NCBI GenBank assembly: GCA_951406725.2
Contig: OX597817.1
Location: forward strand, 71,424,001 to 71,488,000
DNA from: Octopus vulgaris
Lineage: Eukaryota
Length of the DNA stretch: 64,000 bases
Reading direction: 5' to 3'
Part shown: piece after piece, positions 33,802-58,600 of the stretch
How the letters are laid out: the number at the start of each line of letters is the position of its first letter
Position numbering within the stretch: position 1 is the first letter of the stretch
Position numbers and translations under genes: made by a program
The notes under the pieces: model-generated
What the model saw: only the letters and a program-made list of their open reading frames with translations
Told to the model about the DNA's origin: nothing
Databases searched by the model: none

Positions 33802-36800
33802 TCATATATTCAACATGGAAGAAATGTAATTCTTACTTTTTTTGCTTCTCATCTGAAATGAATCTTTCATTTTACGTGACTCACGTCTGTAATCAGATGC
33901 TTTACGTTTTAATGTGTTAGTCTCAATAATACCACATGCAAGTTGTAGGCAGCTGTTGACATCATCATCCTCCTCTGCATTATCTAAAGATGAGTTAGAA
34001 GGTTTTACTGATTGTGCTGAATCAGTTTTACTGACATTCAATAAACTGGTGGAATTTGTTAAGGTGTTGCAACGAGGGTCATTACTGACTACATTTGGAG
34101 CAATGTTTACAAATTGGGTATTAAATAACAGGGACCTGTCAGATATAGAAGTTCTAATAGCTGTACTTTTATTAACAGGATTCAGAGTGCTTGGAATTGA
34201 TGCTTGCAGTATGTGACCTTTGTTTAGAATAGGAGTCTGTTGATTTTGCACTTTATTCACAACAGGAAACAGAACACTTTTGCCATTTAGCTGCATCACT
34301 AGAAGTCGCTGTCCTGGAAGAGGAGCATTTGTCTTGGGAAGTATTAGTGGATTCATTGAATTGGAAATTAGTCTGAAAGACTTGGCATTTTCTGCTGCAT
34401 TTTGCTTTGAATTGTTTATGCGCGCATCATTTGTATTTGCAGAAGTATTTAAGTACCTGATACCTATTTTGCTAGCTGTTTGTGCAGCTAATATGTTATT
34501 CGTCCTAAGCATCTGAGTAACATTTTTGCAAGTAGCACGACATTTAATAGATTTTAGGGTCTTCTCTCCCAACTTCTTAACATTAGCAGATTTTTTACCA
34601 TCAGGCAAGTACATTCTGGGCATCATTACAAAACATTGTTTGAGGGGAAATTTTGAAAGGGTATATTTATCAATTTTGATTCTTGTTTTCTTCTTGGAAT
34701 TAATTTTCATTTCTAGTTGTTTGTTTTCTCTTTGCAGTTTGCTAAAAGCACTATGCATCTTGACAAGTTTTAACACGTTTGGATTTTCAATAAGTGTTTT
34801 TGGCTTTATTGGCTTAGGATTTAAGTAGCTGAACTGCCTATAACTATTTGATACTGGTGGTTTAGAAGTTACAGGCTTGTCAAACTGATACATTTTGAAC
34901 TTAAGCTTAGGTTTTGATGCCTCTTGTGGTAATTTTTCTTCGTTGCTAATCCCTAGAGACTTTGAATTTGCTCCATTTGCTGTCTGTGTGGAATTTATTC
35001 CATGACCTGAGTGAAATGAATTTACTTCAGTTGCTGGTTCAGAGGAAATTATTTTACATGACTGCTGAGCAGAATTTAATACATTTGGCTTAGTAACAAT
35101 TATTTTATAAGGTGGCAGAGTGTTATTTAGTTTAATTGACGGTTTAGCGGTAATTACATAATGTGGTAAAGTGGAATTTACTTCAACTGCTGATTTAGTA
35201 GAATTTACTTCTTGAGCTGGCCGAATTAAATTTACTTCTTGAGCTGGCCGAATTAAATTTACTTTATATACTGCCTGCTTTGAGTTTGCTCCATTATCCG
35301 TTTGACAGGAATTTACTCCTAATTCTTTCTGACTGGAACCTGCTTCAAAATCTGTCTGACTGGAATTTTCTCCATAATCTGTCTGATTGGAACTCACTTC
35401 ACAATCTGTCTGACAAGAATTTTCTCCATAATTTATCTGAGTGGAATTTTCTACAAAATCCGTCTGAGTGGAAATTTCTCCAAAAGCTGTCTGAGAAGAG
35501 TTTATGTCATTGGGTTTCAAAGTGGAATTTACATCATTCAGTGGCTGAGCAGAGTTGGTAGGTTGCAAATTTGAAGAAAGAAATATTGGGGATACTGAAG
35601 ATGTTACTGAAGAAATTCTAGGTTTTGGGTTTCTCAATGAAGCAAGTGTAGGCTGAGGGGTTGGAAGTAATGAAACTATAGGCTGGGAAGAATTTGGAAT
35701 TAGGGAAACCATTGATTGAGGTCTTGGAAATACAGAAGCCAATGGTTGTAAGTTTGTTAGTGTAGTAACCACTGGTGTAGTGGTGTTAAATGAAGAAACT
35801 ACTGGCTTTGAAGTGTTCAATGAGATGACCATTGGTTTTGAAGTGGTCAAGGATGAAAGCACTACTGGTTTTGAAGTGGTCACAGAGGTTACATTTGGTT
35901 TTATGGTGGTTGTTGAAGAAACTATTGATTTAGAGGGGATAAAGGAGTTAACTTTCGGTTTTGGGGTGGGTAATGGAGAAACAACTATTTTAGAAGTGGT
36001 ACTTGGAGAAATCACTGGTTTTGAGATTGCCCACGAAGTAACCACTGGTTTTATGTCAGCTAATGATGAAACCATTGGTTTTATGTCAGCTAATGATGAA
36101 ACCATTGGTTTTATGTCAGCTAATGATGAAACCACTGGTTTTATGTCGGCTAATGATGAAACCACTGGTTTTATGTCGGTTAATGAAGAAACCATTGGTT
36201 TTAAAAAATCATTAGTCATTTCTTCCTCAGATTTAATTTTCCAATCATCTTTAGGAGTATTTATAGTAAAATTAGAGTTATCCCGCAGAGAAAATATGGA
36301 ATCAATTTTCAGTGTCATAGGATTTTCATCCTCTTTCTGACAGATGGATTTTAAATTCCCCAGATCTGATTGGCTGTCTGAAATTACTACAGATTCTGGT
36401 TTTGTAGAAGAGTTATTTGAAGAAACAGTTGAGGTTTTGGTATTGGTTAGATGACTGGGCAGGATCAAAGATGAAGTGGAAGTGATAAGAAAATTAGAAG
36501 TCAAACTAGTAGGACTATTAACATTTTTGGAGTTATCGCATGTATCAGGAGCTGCAGATTTGGGAAGATTGGACTGCTGTGAGGAATCAACAACTTGCAT
36601 TACTTGAGTTTCTGGTTGCTGCACTTTAAAAAGTAACTTTTCTGACTGATTGGGTTGGCTTACCAATGTTGGAGATTGAAGTTTCTTCCTGACATTGTCA
36701 ACAATTTTTGTCAGCTTAACAAACTGAGGCAGAGCAGACTTAGGGCTTGTAACATAATTAACTACACGTGTAGATACAGGTTTAACCATGGTATCAGAAG

Positions 36801-39800
36801 TGCTGGAAACTTTCCCCAGTTTCAGATTAACTTGACTGTTAGAAAAAGAAGTTAGTTTTACAAGAGAATTAGCAGTTACATTTTCCTGACTGGTTACCAG
36901 AGAAACAACTGGAGCAACATTGCTGACTGTATCATCTGGTAATTCTTGTTTAACCTTGATCACTGGACTAATATTAGCAGATGTCACCTGCTGCTGCTGT
37001 TGTGGTTGTTGTTTAGAAATAGCAGAGGTTACTGTAGATACTATAGCTGGACTCGGCTTTAATTGAGATTGTGAATAAACTGGATTAGATCCTACTGGAG
37101 TAGTTACATTAAGCTTTAGAGGCTCAGATGATGATGTTGAGGATGGAGAAAACATGACAGGGATATTGTTGTGTACAGTTTTAGTCACAAACCTTGCATT
37201 GTTATTACAGTTGGAGGCTTGTAAAAATGTTGGTGCTGACTGTGTACCAGCGTTAGTATTTAATAAGGAAATTCCTTTGGCTGCATTAGCATTTTTTGGC
37301 TGATGTGTAGATGTAGACAGTATAAGAGGGTTACTGATTTTGCTTTTCATTTTGCCTGTTACTGAAGAGGCAAAGCTGACTTGTTCAGGAAGAGACTCTG
37401 GTGGAACTAAGATAATGTTTTGCGATGAGGATGGTGATACTTTAGGTAAGTTGGTAATACCTTTGGCTTTATAGATATCACTGGGGTGAATGATCTTCAC
37501 ACTTTCAGATGTTTTAGGAGAAGTCTGGAAAACAGACTGAGCTGCAGATGGGATATGTTTGGCCAGATTAAGCAAATCATCAGGATTTATAGGACCAATA
37601 AAAACCATTGGTTTGTTAAAGTTAGAGGAATATGAAACACTAGTTGTAGAATTTGGAGGAGAAACTGATAATGAAGAAGTCTGTTTGGCTTTACTAGAAT
37701 TAGAAGTTGATACCAAAAAATTACTAGTATTTTGTGAAGATGACAAGTTTAAAGATGTTGATGGTAGATTATGACTCAGAGGATTAATAATAGTTGGTGA
37801 AATCACTGTAGATATTTCTGTTTTGGGAGCAAGTGGTCTTGGGAAAAGTTTTTTTGGATTTTGCTACGTTGATAGCATATCTTATTTGGGGGACAAAATT
37901 TGTTGATGAAGAATTCTTTATAATTTCTTCTGATTTAGGGAATGAATCCTGTAAGTTTTTTGTAGTATTGATGATGGTAGTTGTTGAAGGGGAAGCAGAA
38001 GAAACGACCGCCTGAACATTTGGTTCAATTGTAGTAGTCTTCCCTGCAGGAGAGTTCTTGGCATCTGAAGTGCTTGCAGGTAGAATTAACCAAGAAGTTT
38101 TGTTACCTACAACTGAAGTGTAGGTGCCTGTTCCAGGCATTTGCTGAGTTTTAGTCAAACAAGAGCTATCAGCTGTAGAACCGATTTTTGGAATAGTGCA
38201 AATACTTTTGTCGAGATTGTAACTTGATGTTGTTTTGGTGATAGCATGAATTGTTTTATGAGAGTTTAAGTCTTCAAGAATAGCAATATTCGTTGTAGGT
38301 GTTTTTGGTGTGGCTGTAACACCATTTGGCAGAATCAATTCTGAAGATTTTATAAAAGTTTCTTTTGAGTTGATACCTTCAGTAGGAACATTAGCAGAGA
38401 TTGAAGAATTACTGCTTTTAACAACCTGAAAAACATTAGAAGACACATAACCATTATGTACAATTGTCTTGTCATCACTGGTCACAGCAGGTGAAGCTTG
38501 ATCTACCAATGTTGATACAAGGACACAAGGAGTCATCTGTGAAGGCATTTGAGAAGTGTTATTCAGAACATTTCCTAAAGGATTTGTTTGAAGAGGAAAA
38601 GCTGATGAAGATGTTGGTGTCGTAGTAGCCACTTGATTAGCTATTGCAAAAGTTGGCTTACCTATTATAGTAGTGTTTTGTGAATTCTTCAGAATGGGAC
38701 CTACTGTAGATGCACTGGGCATATACTTAAAAGAAGTTACAGGAGATGGTACTGGAGTAGTCTGAGAATTAGAAACCATAGTAAGGTGTACAACTTGAGA
38801 ATTATTTGAAGGTAATGACACAGGGACAACAAATACCTTCTTTGGCAAATTAGTTGCAGGAAGTGGGGAAATTTTAGGCTGATTTTCAGTTTTTAATATT
38901 GTGTTTGCTAATGTTGAAGTTGCACCTGAAATAGATTTCGGTGGGAGCACATTGAGAGTTGAATTTGAAATGCAGCTTGACATATTAGGCTCTAAAGCTG
39001 AGTAAACAGTATTGGTTCCATTTAATAGAACTGAATTTGTCCCCTTAGGTGGAACATTTCCACTTGATTCTTTTGAACTTGGAGTAGCTTTTAAAATAGC
39101 ATTGAATGAATAAAGAATATTTTTCAGATTGGTCTGAGATAATGGTTGAGAAGATCTGACTATTATGTTCTTTGGTAAGACAGCAGAATTTGTTGTCTTA
39201 TTATCAACAGTAAATTTATGATTAACAGGTAACGAAATGGGTACACTGATTTCACAAGTGCCAGATGAATCCACAGAACCATCAGTATGTAATTGTGGGT
39301 TTACCTTCAGCTGGTTTTCACTGTTTACAAATTCAGATTTGATAGCAGGACTGCCAGCGCTTGTATCCACTGCTTGAGGCATCAGAATAATAGGCTCACT
39401 TTTTGTGACTAATGACGGAGCTAAAGCAGAAATAGGTTCAATCCCAGGTTCCTTCTTTATATTTGTAATGAGCACAGGAGCTGAGTCTGTAGGAAGAGAA
39501 ACTGCTGCATTTAAAGAAGCGTCCCTACTGACTGACATATTTGCTGTCAAATCTGGGGGAAGCAGTGATGTAAGGTTGCTATTAATTGATGGATTTGTTA
39601 AAACTGAGGGAGAAATTATTGGCAAAATGACTGGATCTGAGGTGGAAATAGGTGAACCAGGTACAGTAAAGGTTTGATCCATAAATTCATCCTCAATAAC
39701 AGTATTTTCATTAGACTTAGCATCATTCAACAGAACTACGCTTATTTCAGAATCATCTTCACCAACAGCATCAGATGAGTTTCCAGTATCAGTCTCCACA

Positions 39801-39971
39801 TCAGATAAAGAAGAGGTTTCATTTTCGGGTGCCATAACCAGATACATCTGACCATTGACATTTTTGGTGCACAACCGAAGAGATTTATCATCATCAGAGT
39901 CAAAGTCAGTTGCATCTGTTTCTTCTTTTAATTTCTTACTGTCTTTATTTTTAGCCTTCATTTCAAGTTTC
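33802..39971 (-). CDS. Giant (~6.1 kb) coding exon of an uncharacterised S/T/P-rich, probably disordered nuclear protein (~2,050 aa), interrupted by one +1 frameshift near 37850
   Basis: Two long stop-free ORFs (736 and 1334 aa) overlap and have the same composition. Acceptor TCTTTATTTTCAG|G at 39972 (phase 2). Removing one base from the A7 run at 37849-37855 fuses them (..AKSKKLFPRPLAPKTEISTVISP..). The exon ends at stop 33802 or at donor GTAAGA 33836. It contains no microsatellites or TEs, unlike its flanks. Confidence 0.85.
35160..35560 (-). repeat. Coding 27-bp (9-aa) tandem repeat, core xNSxQTDxx
   Basis: INSSQTAFG EISTQTDFV ENSTQINYG ENSCQTDCE VSSNQTDYG ENSSQTDFE AGSSQKELG VNSCQTDNG ANSKQAVYK VNLIRPAQE VNLIRPAQE VNSTKSAVE. 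Confidence 0.9.
35600..36202 (-). repeat. Coding 30-bp (10-aa) tandem repeat KP(M/V)VSSLADI, about 20 units decaying toward the C-terminus
   Basis: ACCA(T/C)TGGTTTTATGTC(A/G)GCTAATGATGAA is near-perfect about five times at 36040-36200, followed by degenerate KPxVxS units. Confidence 0.9.
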
Positions 39972-42441
39972 CTGAAAATAAAGATAATTGCCATTAATGG
40001 TAATGATGATGTAATTGTTTATTAAGGATGAAACAGCAGATATTTAGGAGAAAGATTTTTAGTGCGTAATAACAATAATGATTTTGTATATGGGTACATG
40101 GAGTGAGGATGTTGAAGACAGAACAAGAACAAAATGTAAAAACTTCAGGGATTTACATCAGGTAAAAAGTTGAGAACAACAATAAAGTGACATTAATAAA
40201 TAATAAAGAACAAAATAACAAATATACTCAAAATGGCAAAATTGGAGTCAATCTGATTGGGGATACTCAAACAAATTTGAATTACCCTGACATAAAGGCA
40301 AGTATCTTTTCCAACCTACAGCCATATAATTAAGTTGTAAATCCATTTAGTCACAATAATTCAGGTGCTCTTACACACCTTTCAAACAATTTACTAGAGG
40401 GTAACACTTGACTTGCTACCCTCACTTTCTTTTTCAAATAGTTGTAGGGAGCTTGATCTGAAAGGAAAAACTGCTTACAAACCTTTTAAGCATGTCCTCT
40501 AGACAATCTTATCAGGTAGAAGAAAACAACTGGCTCTTCTCTGCCACAAGATGACATTGGATTGATTTTCACAGTAGACTGAGCTAATAGCTGAATCTGT
40601 CCAACGAATGATATCAGTTGTTTGACATATCACAACTCAAAAACAGTGAGACACTAACTGAGTGTTGCACTAGAGGGTTTTTCCCACTCTACATGCATCT
40701 TGGACATGTTTAGTTACTGGCAGCTTACCTCAGTCCAGTGAACACCTGACAATACTCCTGATGCCAAATGTCAAGCCTCAGTTTGCACTTAACCCAAGAA
40801 TACAGTTTGGCCCCCAAAAAAAGATATGGAAAAAGCATATCTTTCAATGACCACGTCTAGGCACAGTTGCCACTCAGGCATTTCTGTAAATGTTGCAACC
40901 TTCATGCATTATCAGCTTTGGAATCCCAAGATCCAATGGAATAAATGCTGATAATAGGATTCCTGATCAGTTAAACTTACTCTTTCTAGAAGAAATGAAA
41001 AGACACATGCTTCAATTCAGTCAGATGTTTCCAGGAACATAAGTAGATGTTAGCCATCACTACATAATCTTTTAGGCCCAAATTTCTGTTTCCATTTCTG
41101 ACAGAGACTGGCCACTCTGCTCCCAACTTCTTCAAAATTTATTCACTTGGAGAATTGAACTGAACTAGACTGAATACTTTAATGCTCAAAATAGCATATG
41201 ATAAGAATCCACCTAACAATATGTATTTGTCAGTCCTATAACACTTTAAACTGCCCGACTCACAATGCTCTTATTTTTATTTATTTTAAGGTGAAGTTAT
41301 GCACTCTCTCATATAAAAGAGTACTGTAAAGTCTGCTATTAAAATCAAAGCATGTGTTATGGAATTTTTATGGTTTATTTTCAAAGTATTTTACATCAAA
41401 TCATAATATATGATTCTAAGAAAGCTTACTTGTAAATTTCATAAGGAAAATGTAGGGACATGGTGTACCTATTCTAAAAACCAAGATATAGTCAATTTTA
41501 TATATTTATTATAGCTTTAAAATGAATGACTTTTATATTTTTGTGGCATTTGATCCACATAATCTTCACTTTCAAAAATACTAAAATTGAATACATGGGA
41601 AAAAAGATTAATTTTCACTTTTCACAATAATGATTTCTAACATAGGAATAAAACCCAAATACAAACATGAAATTCATAAATGACAGTACAATTATATCAG
41701 AGACGCATGCATAAACACATATTCCCTCATAGATAAAGGCATATGCACACACATAAATGAATAGATACATAATGTACATGCTAAATCTCAAGGATGTAAT
41801 TGGTGAAGTTTGCTATGACTAGTAATGTTACATTGGTCAAATAATTATAATTTTCAAATTTCATTGTGCTTACTCAAAATAATGAAACATACGAATTTTT
41901 CAAAAACAAATTTCTTATTTGTATATTTGCAATAAATATGTAATAAAGATATTATCAATAACAATAATGTTTCACAATCAATTACACAGATAACATGTTA
42001 ATTCCATATATATTATTAGCATGACCAAGCAACCTACAATGAAGATTATTACCACTGAGGACTGATATTTCATATATTATCTCTCCTCACAGACACATAC
42101 AGGTTTATAGAAGCATAACTTAAAAGTTAGTAAATATCAAAATTTTTCTCCTTGTCATATATATATATATATATATTATCATCATCGCTTAACATCCACT
42201 TTCCCTGCTGGCATAGGTTGGACGGTTTGACTGAAGCTGGGGAACTGCACCAAATTCCAATCTGATTTGGCAAGGTTTCTATGGCTGGATACCCTTCCTC
42301 CAAGAGTGCAGTGGGTGCCTTTTATGTGCCAATGGCACAAGTGCCAGCATCAGCCACAACCATGATCATGCTAGAACAGTGCTTTTTACCTGCCACCAAC
42401 ATGATACTATTTTTGTTAAAGAATAAGATTATATATATATA

Positions 42442-46049: not shown

Positions 46050-46365
46050 TATGAGATCTTGCCTTCTCATTTCTCTGCGAGCAGCGATCCTTCGTCTCTC
46101 AACCTGTCTTCTAATCTCCTTCTCTTCTTCAGTCATTTGGGATCGCCTGATTGCAATTCTTCGTGCATTTTGTTCCCTCCTATGTTGAAGTTGCTCTTTT
46201 GATAAATGCTGTAAATATTCAGTATTTTGAATTCTCTTTCTTTCTCTGCTTTCATGCCTTTCATTTGCTCTATATCTGCGTGCACGCTCAGCTTTCATTT
46301 CTTTCTCTTGCTAGTCGAGTTTTCCTCTCTTCAGATGTCTCATAATCCATGTCTTCTGACTTCAT
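46050..46365 (-). pseudogene. Frameshifted R/E-rich helical-repeat ORF resembling STPR-type repeats
   Basis: MKSEDMDYETSEERKTRLARE / (+1) KAERARRYRANERHESRERKRIQNTEYLQHLSKEQLQHRREQNARRIAIRRSQMTEEEKEIRRQVERRRIAARRE. Confidence 0.5.
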
Positions 46366-52000: not shown

Positions 52001-53934
52001 ACTCAAGTGGACTACAGAGTCCCAAATTATGACTTATTTGTACCACTTGGTCAAATCTTTTAAATCAGATTGATACTGGATTAATACTGGCTGAAATCAA
52101 ACCTCATAGACAACTAATAAACTAAAACACAGATTGATGACAGATATAACCAGCTAGTTCATATTGCCAAATAGAAAGTAAAAGATGTCCACTATATACA
52201 TATTACATATTGCTCAAATGTCAGAACCCATTAATTTTGGGAGCAGTGTGTTTTGAAAACAAAACAGGTAGCAAGCTGCAAGGTACTGAGATATCCAGTT
52301 GACCTAAGGAGATATTAAGTAATTCTTGAATACTAAGATGAAAGGGAAGTTATTGATGACAAACAAATTTGTATTATAGATGTGTGTGTACAAACACAGG
52401 TGAGCAAAAGAAAAAAAGAGGAGGGGAGAGAGAGAAAGAGAGAGAGAGATCGTATATTTTGAAGACAATGAGAAACTGAAAACTTTCAGATAATTTACAT
52501 GCTAGATAATGATGAATTCTTACAGCTGCAGGTCATATATTTTGGAAGGAAAAGAGTCAATTCAGTTATAGGATTTAAGAAAGAAGTGAAGTGCAGAATT
52601 GGTAGATTAGTGGACAAAATGCTGTAACATGACATATTTGAAATTTTGCCATGATTTACTTTACCCTTCTTAACAATAACAACATCACCACCAGGAAACA
52701 TTTAACATGAGAGAATATGATTTGATTGCTTGGATAACTGGGTAAGTGATATTGGTTAAGCTGCTTAATCTTTATTTCATTTAATGTATTACATGATGAT
52801 CAGCAATCTGACACCATATGTAAATGTATTGTTGAAGTGCAATTCAAATTAACACTAGACAAATCCAATCCTTGCCAAAAAAAAAAGCATAAACAATAAA
52901 TAAAAAAGAGAGCTAGTGCCAAAGTACTGAGGCCAGCCCTATACTGTGTACCCCCTCCCATTCCAACACTGGGAGCCTCTTTCATTCGTTTTTATCAATA
53001 ACTTCCTCGAACTGAAAATGCAGTTGAAAAACTACCATTAACTTGCCAACAAGAAATCTCTTTTTCTGATTATGTGTATCACTGAACACATGTTACTGGG
53101 CAAAATCTGAAATATTTCATACCGAATCATGAGAAAGGCCACAAGAGTCTTTTGCCCAGTGTCTTCCATACTTCTGTGTTCTGAGAGAAACCTTAGTTTT
53201 CATGTTTTTGGAATGTACAATTTTAGTGCACCAGGTATAGTGCCAAACCTGAATAGAAACCACAATACATAGATTAAAACACAAAACCCTTAAGGCTTAC
53301 AAATATGTAAATGATCAAAATAAAACACTGCATGTACCCAAAGCTCACAAAGCTTCACTTGATAATGCAATGTCAATAAGGTAAAATAAGACTACTAAAA
53401 GTAATATTAATGAAAAAAAAAAGCATTGGAGGGACGATGCATACCATGCATGCAGATAAATTTTTTTGCAAATTATCGTGAGGCTTACAATGTGTTGCTT
53501 ACCAATACTTTTTAATTTAATTGAATTAAGTTTGCAAGTGTTTGACTAAAAGAGGAAGCCTAAGAAGATGACAACTAAAAGTAGACTTGATAAAATATTA
53601 CATAGAATTTGAGAAGTGTTTTCAATGTCTTTCAATGAAGGCAGGTAAATCAAAGATACTGTAGGATATAAATAATATGACCACTTGCTTGTCAGGAAAT
53701 TTATAAGTTCAAGATTCTAAAAATTAAATTTCTTTTAAGTATCACCATTACAGGTATTTATACTCTGGTGAAATTAAAAATCAACTCATAGAAGATGGAA
53801 ATCCTTGTACACACACAGTTGTACATCTATGTATGTATCTACAAGAGCCTATGTGCATAGGTACACCATGATCTATACACACACAGACGAGGGTTGATTC
53901 AAATGATACATATATATATATATATATATATATA

Positions 53935-55979: not shown

Positions 55980-56580
55980 GGATATTTGTTCTCATCTTGT
56001 TTGTTGCTAAGACGTTTTGACTGATATACCTGCCTAGCCTTCATCAAGTGTCTTGGGGGAAATTTCAAACCTGGATTCTCATTCCTAAGGTATTTTTCGA
56101 TGTTATTATTATTATTATTAAGGTCACTGGAATTGAACTTGGAAACTTGGGGTTAGTAGCCTGCGCTCTTAACCACTACATCATATGTCCGTGGGCAATT
56201 ATGGAGTGAATTTTAGGGCTTATAAATCTAATATTTTCCTATCCTTCCTTAATACCGGTTCCCATAACCTATTCATATCTGCACTTGGTCTGCTTAGGAG
56301 GTTGTTGTGTCCTAGCATATGTGCTGCTTCTTTTAGATTTTGTATTTTCCAGTGGTGTTCTCTGTCTATTATTTTAACTTCATCCCACAAGGGGAGGTGG
56401 TCTCCATTTTTCCATACATGATCAGCTATACCCGATTTATCAATATCTCCCTGTGTCATACCTTTGCAATGTTCGTCTACCCTTATTTTGAGGAGGCAGC
56501 ATGTTTCTCCTTTGTATAACCTACCACAGCTGCATGGGATGGAGTACACACAGTTCTTAGTCATATTCTCTTCTATAGTC
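55980..56580 (-). mobile_element. Penelope-like element 3' part: GIY-YIG endonuclease plus 3' region with decayed hammerhead
   Basis: KNCVYSIPCSCGRLYKGET..LKIRVDEH..SGIADHVW..WDEVKIIDREHHWK..LKEAAHM. Confidence 0.85.
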
Positions 56581-58600
56581 AGCCACTACTCACATATCTG
56601 AACTGGTGCTACAGCCACTCACACAAAAAAATGCTATTTTACATTCAAAAGGAAATCATTGAACTGACAACTGTTTGTAAAAAAACTAAGTTGTTTCCTC
56701 TTTGTGTTCCTGTTTTTCTAAATCCTTAATCTGCATATCTTCTCTCCATAGGTCTACCCAACACACCTGCTTCTCCTCCAGATTCCACACTAAACATTTT
56801 GCTGCCAAACTTTCCTTCCTCCGGAACTTTCTTCTGGCTCTAAGTTTTCCTATAGATATCACCTACATATATACAAGCTGACTATCAACTGTTTCAACTT
56901 TGGTCTTGGAGAATCTACAAAAATTATAGACACTAACTAAGATATCAGCCAAAAGAACAGTATCATATTAGTTTAAAAAGCAGGGCTTTTTTTATTTGAT
57001 AACATTTTTTGCTTTTTCCTTTGTATAATCCTTTTGAAATCTACTTGATTTAAGGTAGCTTCTAGCCTAATTCTGACAGAACTATCCATAATATAAAGAG
57101 TTGTACCTCTATTTAAAATCTTGTGGTTATGTCAATAATCACAAGAGATTTCAGGAGGTAAAAATTCTATCAATAAACAAACCAATCAATGAGAGAACTT
57201 TTATGTGGTCACTCTACTTGTTACATTTAGCAATCAAATCTACCTCACTATATACCTTATTTTCTCTTACACATACACAGTGAATAAGATAGTTCTAGAT
57301 GCACAATGTCAAAAGAAAACTGGCAGGTGAACATGATTGGAATACCTTTATTAAAAAACTGCTTGATTAGTTAATTTGTTCAGTTACTCTAAAATTCTTT
57401 ATTATTTTGACAATTGAAACATGAAGATAAGTCTGTTCTTGGATTAAATTGTTAAAGACTGAATGGAGCTATTATCGAAAGTGTTCAAGTGATGTTGCAT
57501 TTTGCTTTTCTAAGCACAGTGTATCTAAGACTTCACTACCCAAGGTGTCCTTTTTTTTTTTTTTTTTTTTGTTTTTGAGCCAGTAGTATGTGATTGAGAA
57601 ATTTAGTTATTTGTTACAGCAAACATTACAAACACATAAAGATTTTTCCTTGTTGGTTCAACTTAGATTTGTTATTTAGTAGCTAATACTTTTGTTAGCA
57701 CAAATCTTGTCAGTAAATTTGTGAAAACATGATTTCATTAGGTAAACAATTGAGTTATTACTGTCTGCCATTATTTTATGTGGTATCTGAACTCTGCAAG
57801 ATTTTGGAAATTTTTTTCCAATTTCTTTTTCCTACTTTTTTTTTTACAATGGACAAAAAATAGACACTTGTTTCATGTTGTGAAGTAGCAAGTTTGAATT
57901 CAAAGGATTTTTTGAAAGACAGGAAAATTTTGTAAAATATATAGTGAACTATATAAAATATATATGTGTGACTATGAATCAGATATCTCAATTTCCAAAA
58001 GTGAAATAAAACTGACAACAGTTCCGACACTAATAGAAAAAGAGAATTTGTACCCAAATGTAGTAAGAATTTGAAAATTGTTTCTCTTAGTTGTTTTTTG
58101 GAAGAGACTAGATCTAGCCGCAATCTTTCCAAGGAAGCGAAACCATTGGATTATTTTTTTTTATTTATAATTTTCATATGTAATTTCAATTATATATTTC
58201 TTTTCTCAAATTTACCTTGTTTTTCTCTTCTTCTATCCATAATTTTAATTTGCCTGTAAGGCGTGTAATAAATTTTGATTAATTTGTATAGTGGACCTTA
58301 CTATGTTTCTGTGTATTACATTTTCTAATTTCCTTCAAAGATAAATTCCAATATTTTGTCCAATTTTACCTTTATGGTACACCTGTTCCTTGTGCATTAA
58401 GTTCAACTGATAGATAATCCAGTTATATGTACAATTCTTTTAAATAAAATTCTGTAGTTTGCCCAACTGAAGACTAGTTAATAACCCATTTTCTATGCAG
58501 ATGTTTAAACAAATTTATTTTAATTTTATATTTTGTTTAATATACCTGTCTTCACCTGTAATTAAATTAGTTTTGAAACAAAAATTATACAATAGTTTTC

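Follow-up and report, generated by a model that had tools for sequence, protein, structure and literature searches.

An exon of Octopus vulgaris encodes nine glutamines that follow each other at a strict 9-residue period. The question raised by this locus is whether such a regularity marks a selected series of binding sites for LC8, as a first-pass annotation had proposed, or is what the amplification of a coding repeat leaves behind. The window analysed here is the whole stretch of 64,000 nucleotides from contig OX597817.1. On balance, we lean towards a tolerated coding minisatellite expansion, which is drifting and carries probably one ordinary (predicted) LC8 site. Coordinates of the features are collected in Table 1.

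The array itself is present as described. Translation of the ORF 33802-37863 (minus strand) places Gln at positions 791, 800, 809 and so on to 863, and the in-phase codon table confirmed both the exact period and the listed pentamers (units 1-9: SSQTA, STQTD, STQIN, SCQTD, SNQTD, SSQTD, SSQKE, SCQTD, SKQAV). S/T-Q occurs in 5/9 of these core units and the TQT anchor in 1/9. The longest run of Gln at lag 9 is 9, compared to a maximum of 4 in 2000 shuffles of the 2,070-aa Octopus sinensis orthologue. Birth of the array from a 27-bp coding minisatellite was also borne out: TRF reported, at 35285-35495, a 27-bp unit repeated 7.8 times (73% matches) and a 54-bp period repeated 3.7 times, the latter with the higher score (218 compared to 196). 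Since the nine units lie inside a single ungapped contig of 840-841 bp in 8/8 public runs (seven studies and one possible source), they are not an assembly artefact.

The minisatellite extends in phase on both sides of the core, and the majority unit of the 15 is Y-E-V-N-S-T-Q-T-D. Its most constant feature is N-S (N in 12/15 units, S in 13/15, Q in 10/15), Q being nearly restricted to the core. Flanking units with a lost motif, also announced by the annotation, were indeed found, as distal units devoid of the anchor. These include young VNLIRPAQE units, present in two copies here, four in O. sinensis isoform X1 and one in model X6; contigs from 8/8 runs break within them, at 35231/35235. The further distal STQTA exists as well, out of phase with the array. 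A search of the animal's own genome returned no second copy of the 27-bp minisatellite, which is thus single copy. A 30-bp array directly adjoins it and is graded, five near-identical units passing into about 15 decayed ones; between them, the 27-bp and 30-bp arrays make about 1 kb of the exon repeat-born.

Table 1. Features of the locus (window coordinates; core units are numbered in the direction of translation)
Feature	Position	Strand	Basis or remark
Single large coding exon	33802..39971	-	ATG 39961, stop 33802, acceptor 39971
C-terminal basic segment, modelled as helix	33805..33969	-	AF2, pLDDT 53-66
Distal out-of-phase copy GINSTQTA	34978..35001	-	TQT anchor, but hydrophobic -4 and Asn at -3
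Whole 27-bp (9-aa) coding minisatellite, 15 in-phase units	35161..35565	-	TRF, codon table, unit alignment
Young near-identical VNLIRPAQE units, same array	35215..35268	-	anchor absent; copy number varies
Nine-unit Q core (Q791-Q863)	35269..35511	-	translation and in-phase codon table
Unit 8, GVNSCQTD	35296..35319	-	QTD kept; -4 and -3 rules failed
Unit 6, GENSSQTD	35350..35373	-	weak candidate, alternate-unit register
Unit 4, GENSCQTD	35404..35427	-	weak candidate, alternate-unit register
Unit 3, VENSTQIN	35431..35454	-	weak candidate; TQI anchor, Asn at -3
Unit 2, GEISTQTD	35458..35481	-	predicted LC8 site; sole motif in the protein with all LC8 rules met
30-bp (10-aa, KPVVSSLADI-type) coding minisatellite, about 20 decaying units	35602..36201	-	QT absent
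T7 run with one extra T (assembly error splitting the ORF)	37849..37855	.	reads and orthologue
Alternative upstream exon, GC donor, minor	46063..46359	-	contig loose end at 39973, ORF, isoform X5

The host protein is S/T/N/P-rich and 2,052 aa long once the extra base at 37849 is disregarded. This T is missing from 8/8 public runs, including two DNA runs, and the O. sinensis protein is continuous across the matching position; we therefore attribute the frameshift to an assembly error. In the public O. vulgaris record CAI9721193 (733 aa), it is the frameshift-truncated protein that is annotated. At the acceptor of the exon, six RNA-like runs give contigs that break off at 39971 and carry extra letters there, and three of the six show no depth at all in the intron, into which the DNA run continues. 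One contig loose end leads to an exon that lies outside the window, about 42 kb upstream, and has a GT donor. Splicing of the minor alternative exon keeps the frame and could extend the protein by about 80 R/E-rich residues, which are preceded by a short out-of-frame upstream ORF; the exon is supported by the MRR start of O. sinensis isoform X5. No Pfam match was found for it, and only two weak look-alikes in the genome; its R/E-rich frame recalls, in our view, Helitron- or STPR-like N-termini.

Several other observations were made upstream. A candidate alternative exon at 53123-53248 (minus strand) ends in VAFLMIR, and 5/7 of these residues agree with the start of isoform X4 in O. sinensis. 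Two upstream exons (contig ~71505641 and ~71492707) share the last 14 bases before a GTAAGT donor, a sequence identity that suggests a duplicated first exon. NRF1-like and ETS-like motifs lie upstream of the farther one (~71505641), an arrangement also seen in housekeeping promoters. Finally, a 121-codon open frame at 56220-56585 (minus strand) resembles a remnant retroelement GIY-YIG endonuclease.

The closest relative of the protein is the O. sinensis orthologue XP_029634528 with its isoforms (2,070 aa, same Met, automatically named mucin-3A/5AC; the N-termini of RefSeq isoforms contribute 28 further residues at most). Its nine units are identical and the rest is about 99% identical, the two species being too close to inform on conservation. 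Beyond the O. sinensis/O. vulgaris cluster, neither word-indexed searches (lengths of 744-2368 aa, 1153-3672 aa and under 1153 aa, about 8000 candidates scored in each) nor a full phmmer scan returned any homologue, only two unrelated 9-mer repeat proteins; as other octopods may be hidden in the 50% cluster or be unannotated, the gene is not thereby shown to be species-restricted. For none of four pieces searched was a paralogue found in the own genome, and the unit pattern gave five genomic matches elsewhere, equal to the reversed control. Literature searches, covering few subscription papers, returned no relevant title on octopus and LC8 or on cephalopod repeats, and no text naming four of the protein accessions.

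A nuclear host was assumed by the annotation; the predictions fit this, and a disordered protein as well. Scanning of the full-length orthologue detected no Pfam domain above cut-off. Over the array, single-sequence AF2 gave a pLDDT of about 30 and no secondary structure, a low value that is expected anyway without an alignment; composition agrees with disorder. The C-terminal 585 residues, modelled likewise without alignment, had a mean pLDDT of 35. The terminal basic segment contains K/R clusters that we take to be NLS-like. The SUMO consensus is psi-K-x-E, and the protein carries six such sites compared to 1.2 expected (P = 0.001). ESM Atlas provided no usable match for the array; for the C-terminal part it gave leads below 0.9 only, a level often reached by shuffled proteins, and all of them are chromatin proteins (PHF21B, ARID2, EMSY, NPAT, LRIF1). 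Together with the lack of a signal or transmembrane segment, these motifs and models make a disordered nuclear protein likely. Two non-repeat islands, 34498-34941 and 39701-39961 (minus strand), contain a short predicted helix, a CxVxM motif and two short hairpin-like segments (NVNGQMYLV and QLNGKSVLF); the CxVxM motif presumably resembles PxVxL-type HP1 ligands.

To what extent are the nine units LC8 motifs? The positional rules of PMC6607443 were coded directly, with a permissive anchor list of our own setting and in place of PSSM or LC8Pred scores. One unit passed all rules, three missed one rule and five failed. The passing motif, unit 2 (GEISTQTD), is close to a listed LC8 binder, NDISTQTS (PMC6607443 Table S4). 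Units 3, 4 and 6 pass only if the permissive anchor list is combined with a small residue at -3, and units 1, 5, 7, 8 and 9 fail, as does the distal GINSTQTA. Counted by eye in the same Table S4, the -1 residue of 79 LC8 binders is never C, N or K and is S in four; Asn at -3 occurs in 1/79 binders and 1/32 non-binders, and in 6/9 units of the array. CQT motifs do occur among the predictions shown in that paper. All four rule-passing sites of the protein lie within the array. Their number is nevertheless ordinary for the 2,070-aa orthologue: one strict and four loose sites compared to 1.98 and 3.27 in shuffles. A canonical LC8 of 89 aa is encoded in this genome. The nine units thus include one canonical LC8-type motif, and the rules make it likely that the array holds one to four predicted sites rather than nine rungs.

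The same impression was obtained from divergence between units. With units treated as paralogues, star-tree estimates on few sites gave pN/pS values of 0.96 (nine core units), 1.1 (inner seven) and 1.11 (all 15), with no synonymous excess; the pairwise value was 0.92, and 0.97 for the anchor columns -1 to +2. Column -1, which reads S,T,T,C,N,S,S,C,K, is the most changed one, with nine nonsynonymous and no synonymous differences. Invariance of Q and S(-2) in 9/9 units has P = 0.002 in a star-tree neutral simulation, the units having been chosen on Q; over the inner seven units P is 0.11. A weak signal appeared when even and odd units were separated. In the Q-T-D columns, units 2, 4, 6 and 8 differ by three synonymous and no nonsynonymous changes, the five odd units by 0.5 and 7.5, respectively (P about 0.025 by simulation, post hoc). 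Pairwise pN/pS is 0.55 for even units, 2.57 for the inner three odd units and 1.12 for all five; by Fisher's test the contrast gives P = 0.13 over all columns and P = 0.07 for the five invariant ones. Public runs provided 14 usable exon SNPs of 15 (37855, beside the frameshift, was left out), five synonymous and nine nonsynonymous (pN/pS 0.59, P = 0.25); the single one in the array is synonymous and uninformative. Hence the units, whose QT positions would be expected to be more conserved than their neighbours if they mattered, diverge neutrally overall, with a weak signal in the even ones.

These data have to be weighed against the idea of a ladder, in which LC8 dimers would occupy either all units or some of them. 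For an LC8 dimer on every unit at 9-residue spacing speak the exact period and the invariant Q, as well as two precedents: one site pair with a 1-residue linker in human ASCIZ, as described in PMC10046861, and the binding of LC8 by KANK1 via non-canonical sites, as described in PMC12803091. An 8-residue motif at period 9 leaves precisely a 1-residue linker, whereas the rigid ladders reported in PMC12803091 have linkers of 3-5 residues. In addition, three of the failing units are defective at the anchor itself (NQT, SQK, KQA). Nine extended residues span about 3 nm. Compared to the value of about 3.5 nm per LC8 dimer given for KANK1 (53 nm for 15, hinge included; PMC12803091), this suggests that full occupancy would be crowded, and we regard it as doubtful. 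With 5/9 units failing, neutral divergence, a drifting -1 anchor and a 1-residue linker, the tightly packed nine-site ladder first proposed appears very improbable. Using alternate units would lengthen the linker to 10 residues. A selected ladder on units 2, 4, 6 and 8 (TQTD, CQTD, SQTD, CQTD; 18-aa period) is possible, though we would not bet on it: binding would be cooperative and nucleated by unit 2, two chains would be zipped into a stiff duplex and the odd units would decay into linkers. Several observations go in this direction, namely the synonymous-only differences in the Q-T-D columns of even units as opposed to odd ones, the better TRF score of the 54-bp period, the small -1 residue kept in even units (T, C, S, C), the presence of a canonical LC8 gene, and a linker that fits known geometry and matches the QTD-keeping units. 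Linkers of 6-9 residues give homogeneous LC8 complexes in ASCIZ according to PMC10046861. Closely spaced, weak non-canonical sites bind cooperatively in KANK1 as presented in PMC12803091, so that poor single-motif scores do not by themselves exclude a ladder. However, even and odd units were separated post hoc and differ little by Fisher's test, and a higher-order duplication of 54 bp could, in the absence of selection, account for some of the pattern; Asn at -3 (3/4 sites) and Cys at -1 (2/4) are rare or unseen among the 79 binders, and no distant orthologue was found. If real, the alternate-unit ladder would mean that multivalent LC8 scaffolds arise by DNA repeat slippage and are tuned to LC8 spacing, and it would offer a natural series for the minimum inter-dimer linker, a point left open in the ASCIZ and KANK1 papers. 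More speculative, and unlikely in our estimate, is a minisatellite tamed within octopuses into a four-rung LC8 zipper that dimerises and stiffens a disordered nuclear protein, with T799 as an ATM/ATR off-switch. There, the 9-residue unit would be too short for adjacent LC8 dimers and selection would have kept QTD at every second unit; such a case would be a snapshot of the birth of an LC8 ladder and of its spacing tuning.

Two further readings do without a ladder. The S/T-Q motifs could form a cluster phosphorylated by ATM/ATR, a switch possibly ejecting LC8 on phosphorylation of T799; phosphorylation at or near the anchor lowers LC8 binding in the data described in PMC12017986, so the LC8 and S/T-Q readings could combine at this residue. 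Five S/T-Q in 56 residues do agree with the SCD definition as given in PMC3564818 (at least three in 50), and the SUMO sites point to a nuclear protein. This part of the annotation stood formally, but there is no excess over shuffles (P 0.06-0.34): the protein has 29 S/T-Q compared to 24 expected, and 6-34% of shuffles equal its best window (four in 50 by 27%, five in 60 by 6%). Moreover, S/T at -1 is lost in 4/9 units, and C or N stands there in units 4, 5 and 8, i.e. in 3/4 of the QTD-keeping inner units after unit 2. We judge such a switch improbable. The automatic RefSeq names mucin-3A/5AC evoke instead a mucin-like, glycosylated spacer in which the repeated N-S-(S/T/C) would serve as glycosylation sequons, and within the unit N-S is what varies least. 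Nevertheless, the N-terminus is not hydrophobic (maximum 19-residue hydropathy of 0.22 in the first 30 windows), no transmembrane segment is present (maximum hydropathy 1.05), none of the RefSeq isoforms has a signal-like N-terminus, no mucin-associated Pfam domain was detected, and SUMO and NLS-like motifs are present. A mucin is hardly credible here. The locus needs re-annotation as one 2,052-aa ORF split by an assembly error, 'mucin' being a misnomer.

The drifting minisatellite with one LC8 site remains the reading we favour. A unit reading ..N-S-T-Q-T-D would have been amplified, likely by slippage; the strict Q period would then be inherited from the repeat unit and need no selection. 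Later substitutions would have degraded the -1 anchor in most units, and the array would drift nearly neutrally as a flexible spacer in which unit 2 alone would bind LC8 well. Two chains and an LC8 dimer could be clamped at this unit, as in ordinary single-site LC8 clients, units 3, 4 and 6 giving at most weak help. The exon is prone to expansion, as seen from the 30-bp array without QT and from the variable copy number of the anchorless distal units. If there is no ladder, the locus is a coding minisatellite of the ordinary kind and serves as a warning that repeat expansion yields periodic QT motifs at no cost.

Among known systems, the loach podocalyxin XP_055046703 also contains a tandemly amplified 9-aa unit ending in S-T-Q-T, but its array is nearly homogeneous, lies upstream of a transmembrane segment and belongs to a CD34-family protein; the resemblance is convergent. 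Since this STQT array is presumably extracellular, arrays of the kind can form where an LC8 role is implausible. A reviewer of PMC6607443 raised the same point in its supplement, concerning TQT matches in mucin ectodomains. With about 20 near-perfect STQT-containing repeats in its N-terminal part, the loach protein is a natural negative control for LC8-ladder predictions. The SCD of ATM/ATR substrates, as defined in PMC3564818, shares the density of at least three S/T-Q in 50 with the octopus array, which is not enriched over composition.

Among LC8 clients, ASCIZ/ATMIN, as described in PMC5963919 and PMC10046861, resembles the octopus protein, which is likely nuclear and has a long region, predicted to be disordered, with several xQT motifs. 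In the LC8Pred training table the anchor is TQT or VQV in all 10 motifs of human ATMIN, compared to TQT in 1/9 octopus units. Membership in the ASCIZ family was rejected: the full-length orthologue has no zinc finger and no Pfam domain, and the isoforms extend it N-terminally by no more than 28 residues. A search with an ASCIZ zinc-finger profile gave no match anywhere, controls included, and is hence uninformative. The dynein-light-chain interaction domain of Nup159 likewise has tandem QT motifs at short regular spacing; it consists, as far as described, of five strong motifs with 4-5-residue linkers, in contrast to the weak motifs and shorter spacing of the octopus array, and there is no homology. 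A further parallel is the L2 linker of KANK1 as described in PMC12803091: disordered, with close and even spacing and mostly non-canonical candidate sites. Any ladder in the octopus array would need a KANK1-like cooperativity. KANK1 linkers are of 3-4 residues and binding was measured, whereas here they would be of 1 or 10 residues and are predicted from sequence; as far as that paper describes them, the KANK1 sites do not form a tandem repeat, and they share no sequence homology with the array. Judged by sequence, the octopus array thus resembles KANK1, ASCIZ and Nup159 in principle and is homologous to none of them: it is a real feature, and likely an ordinary one.
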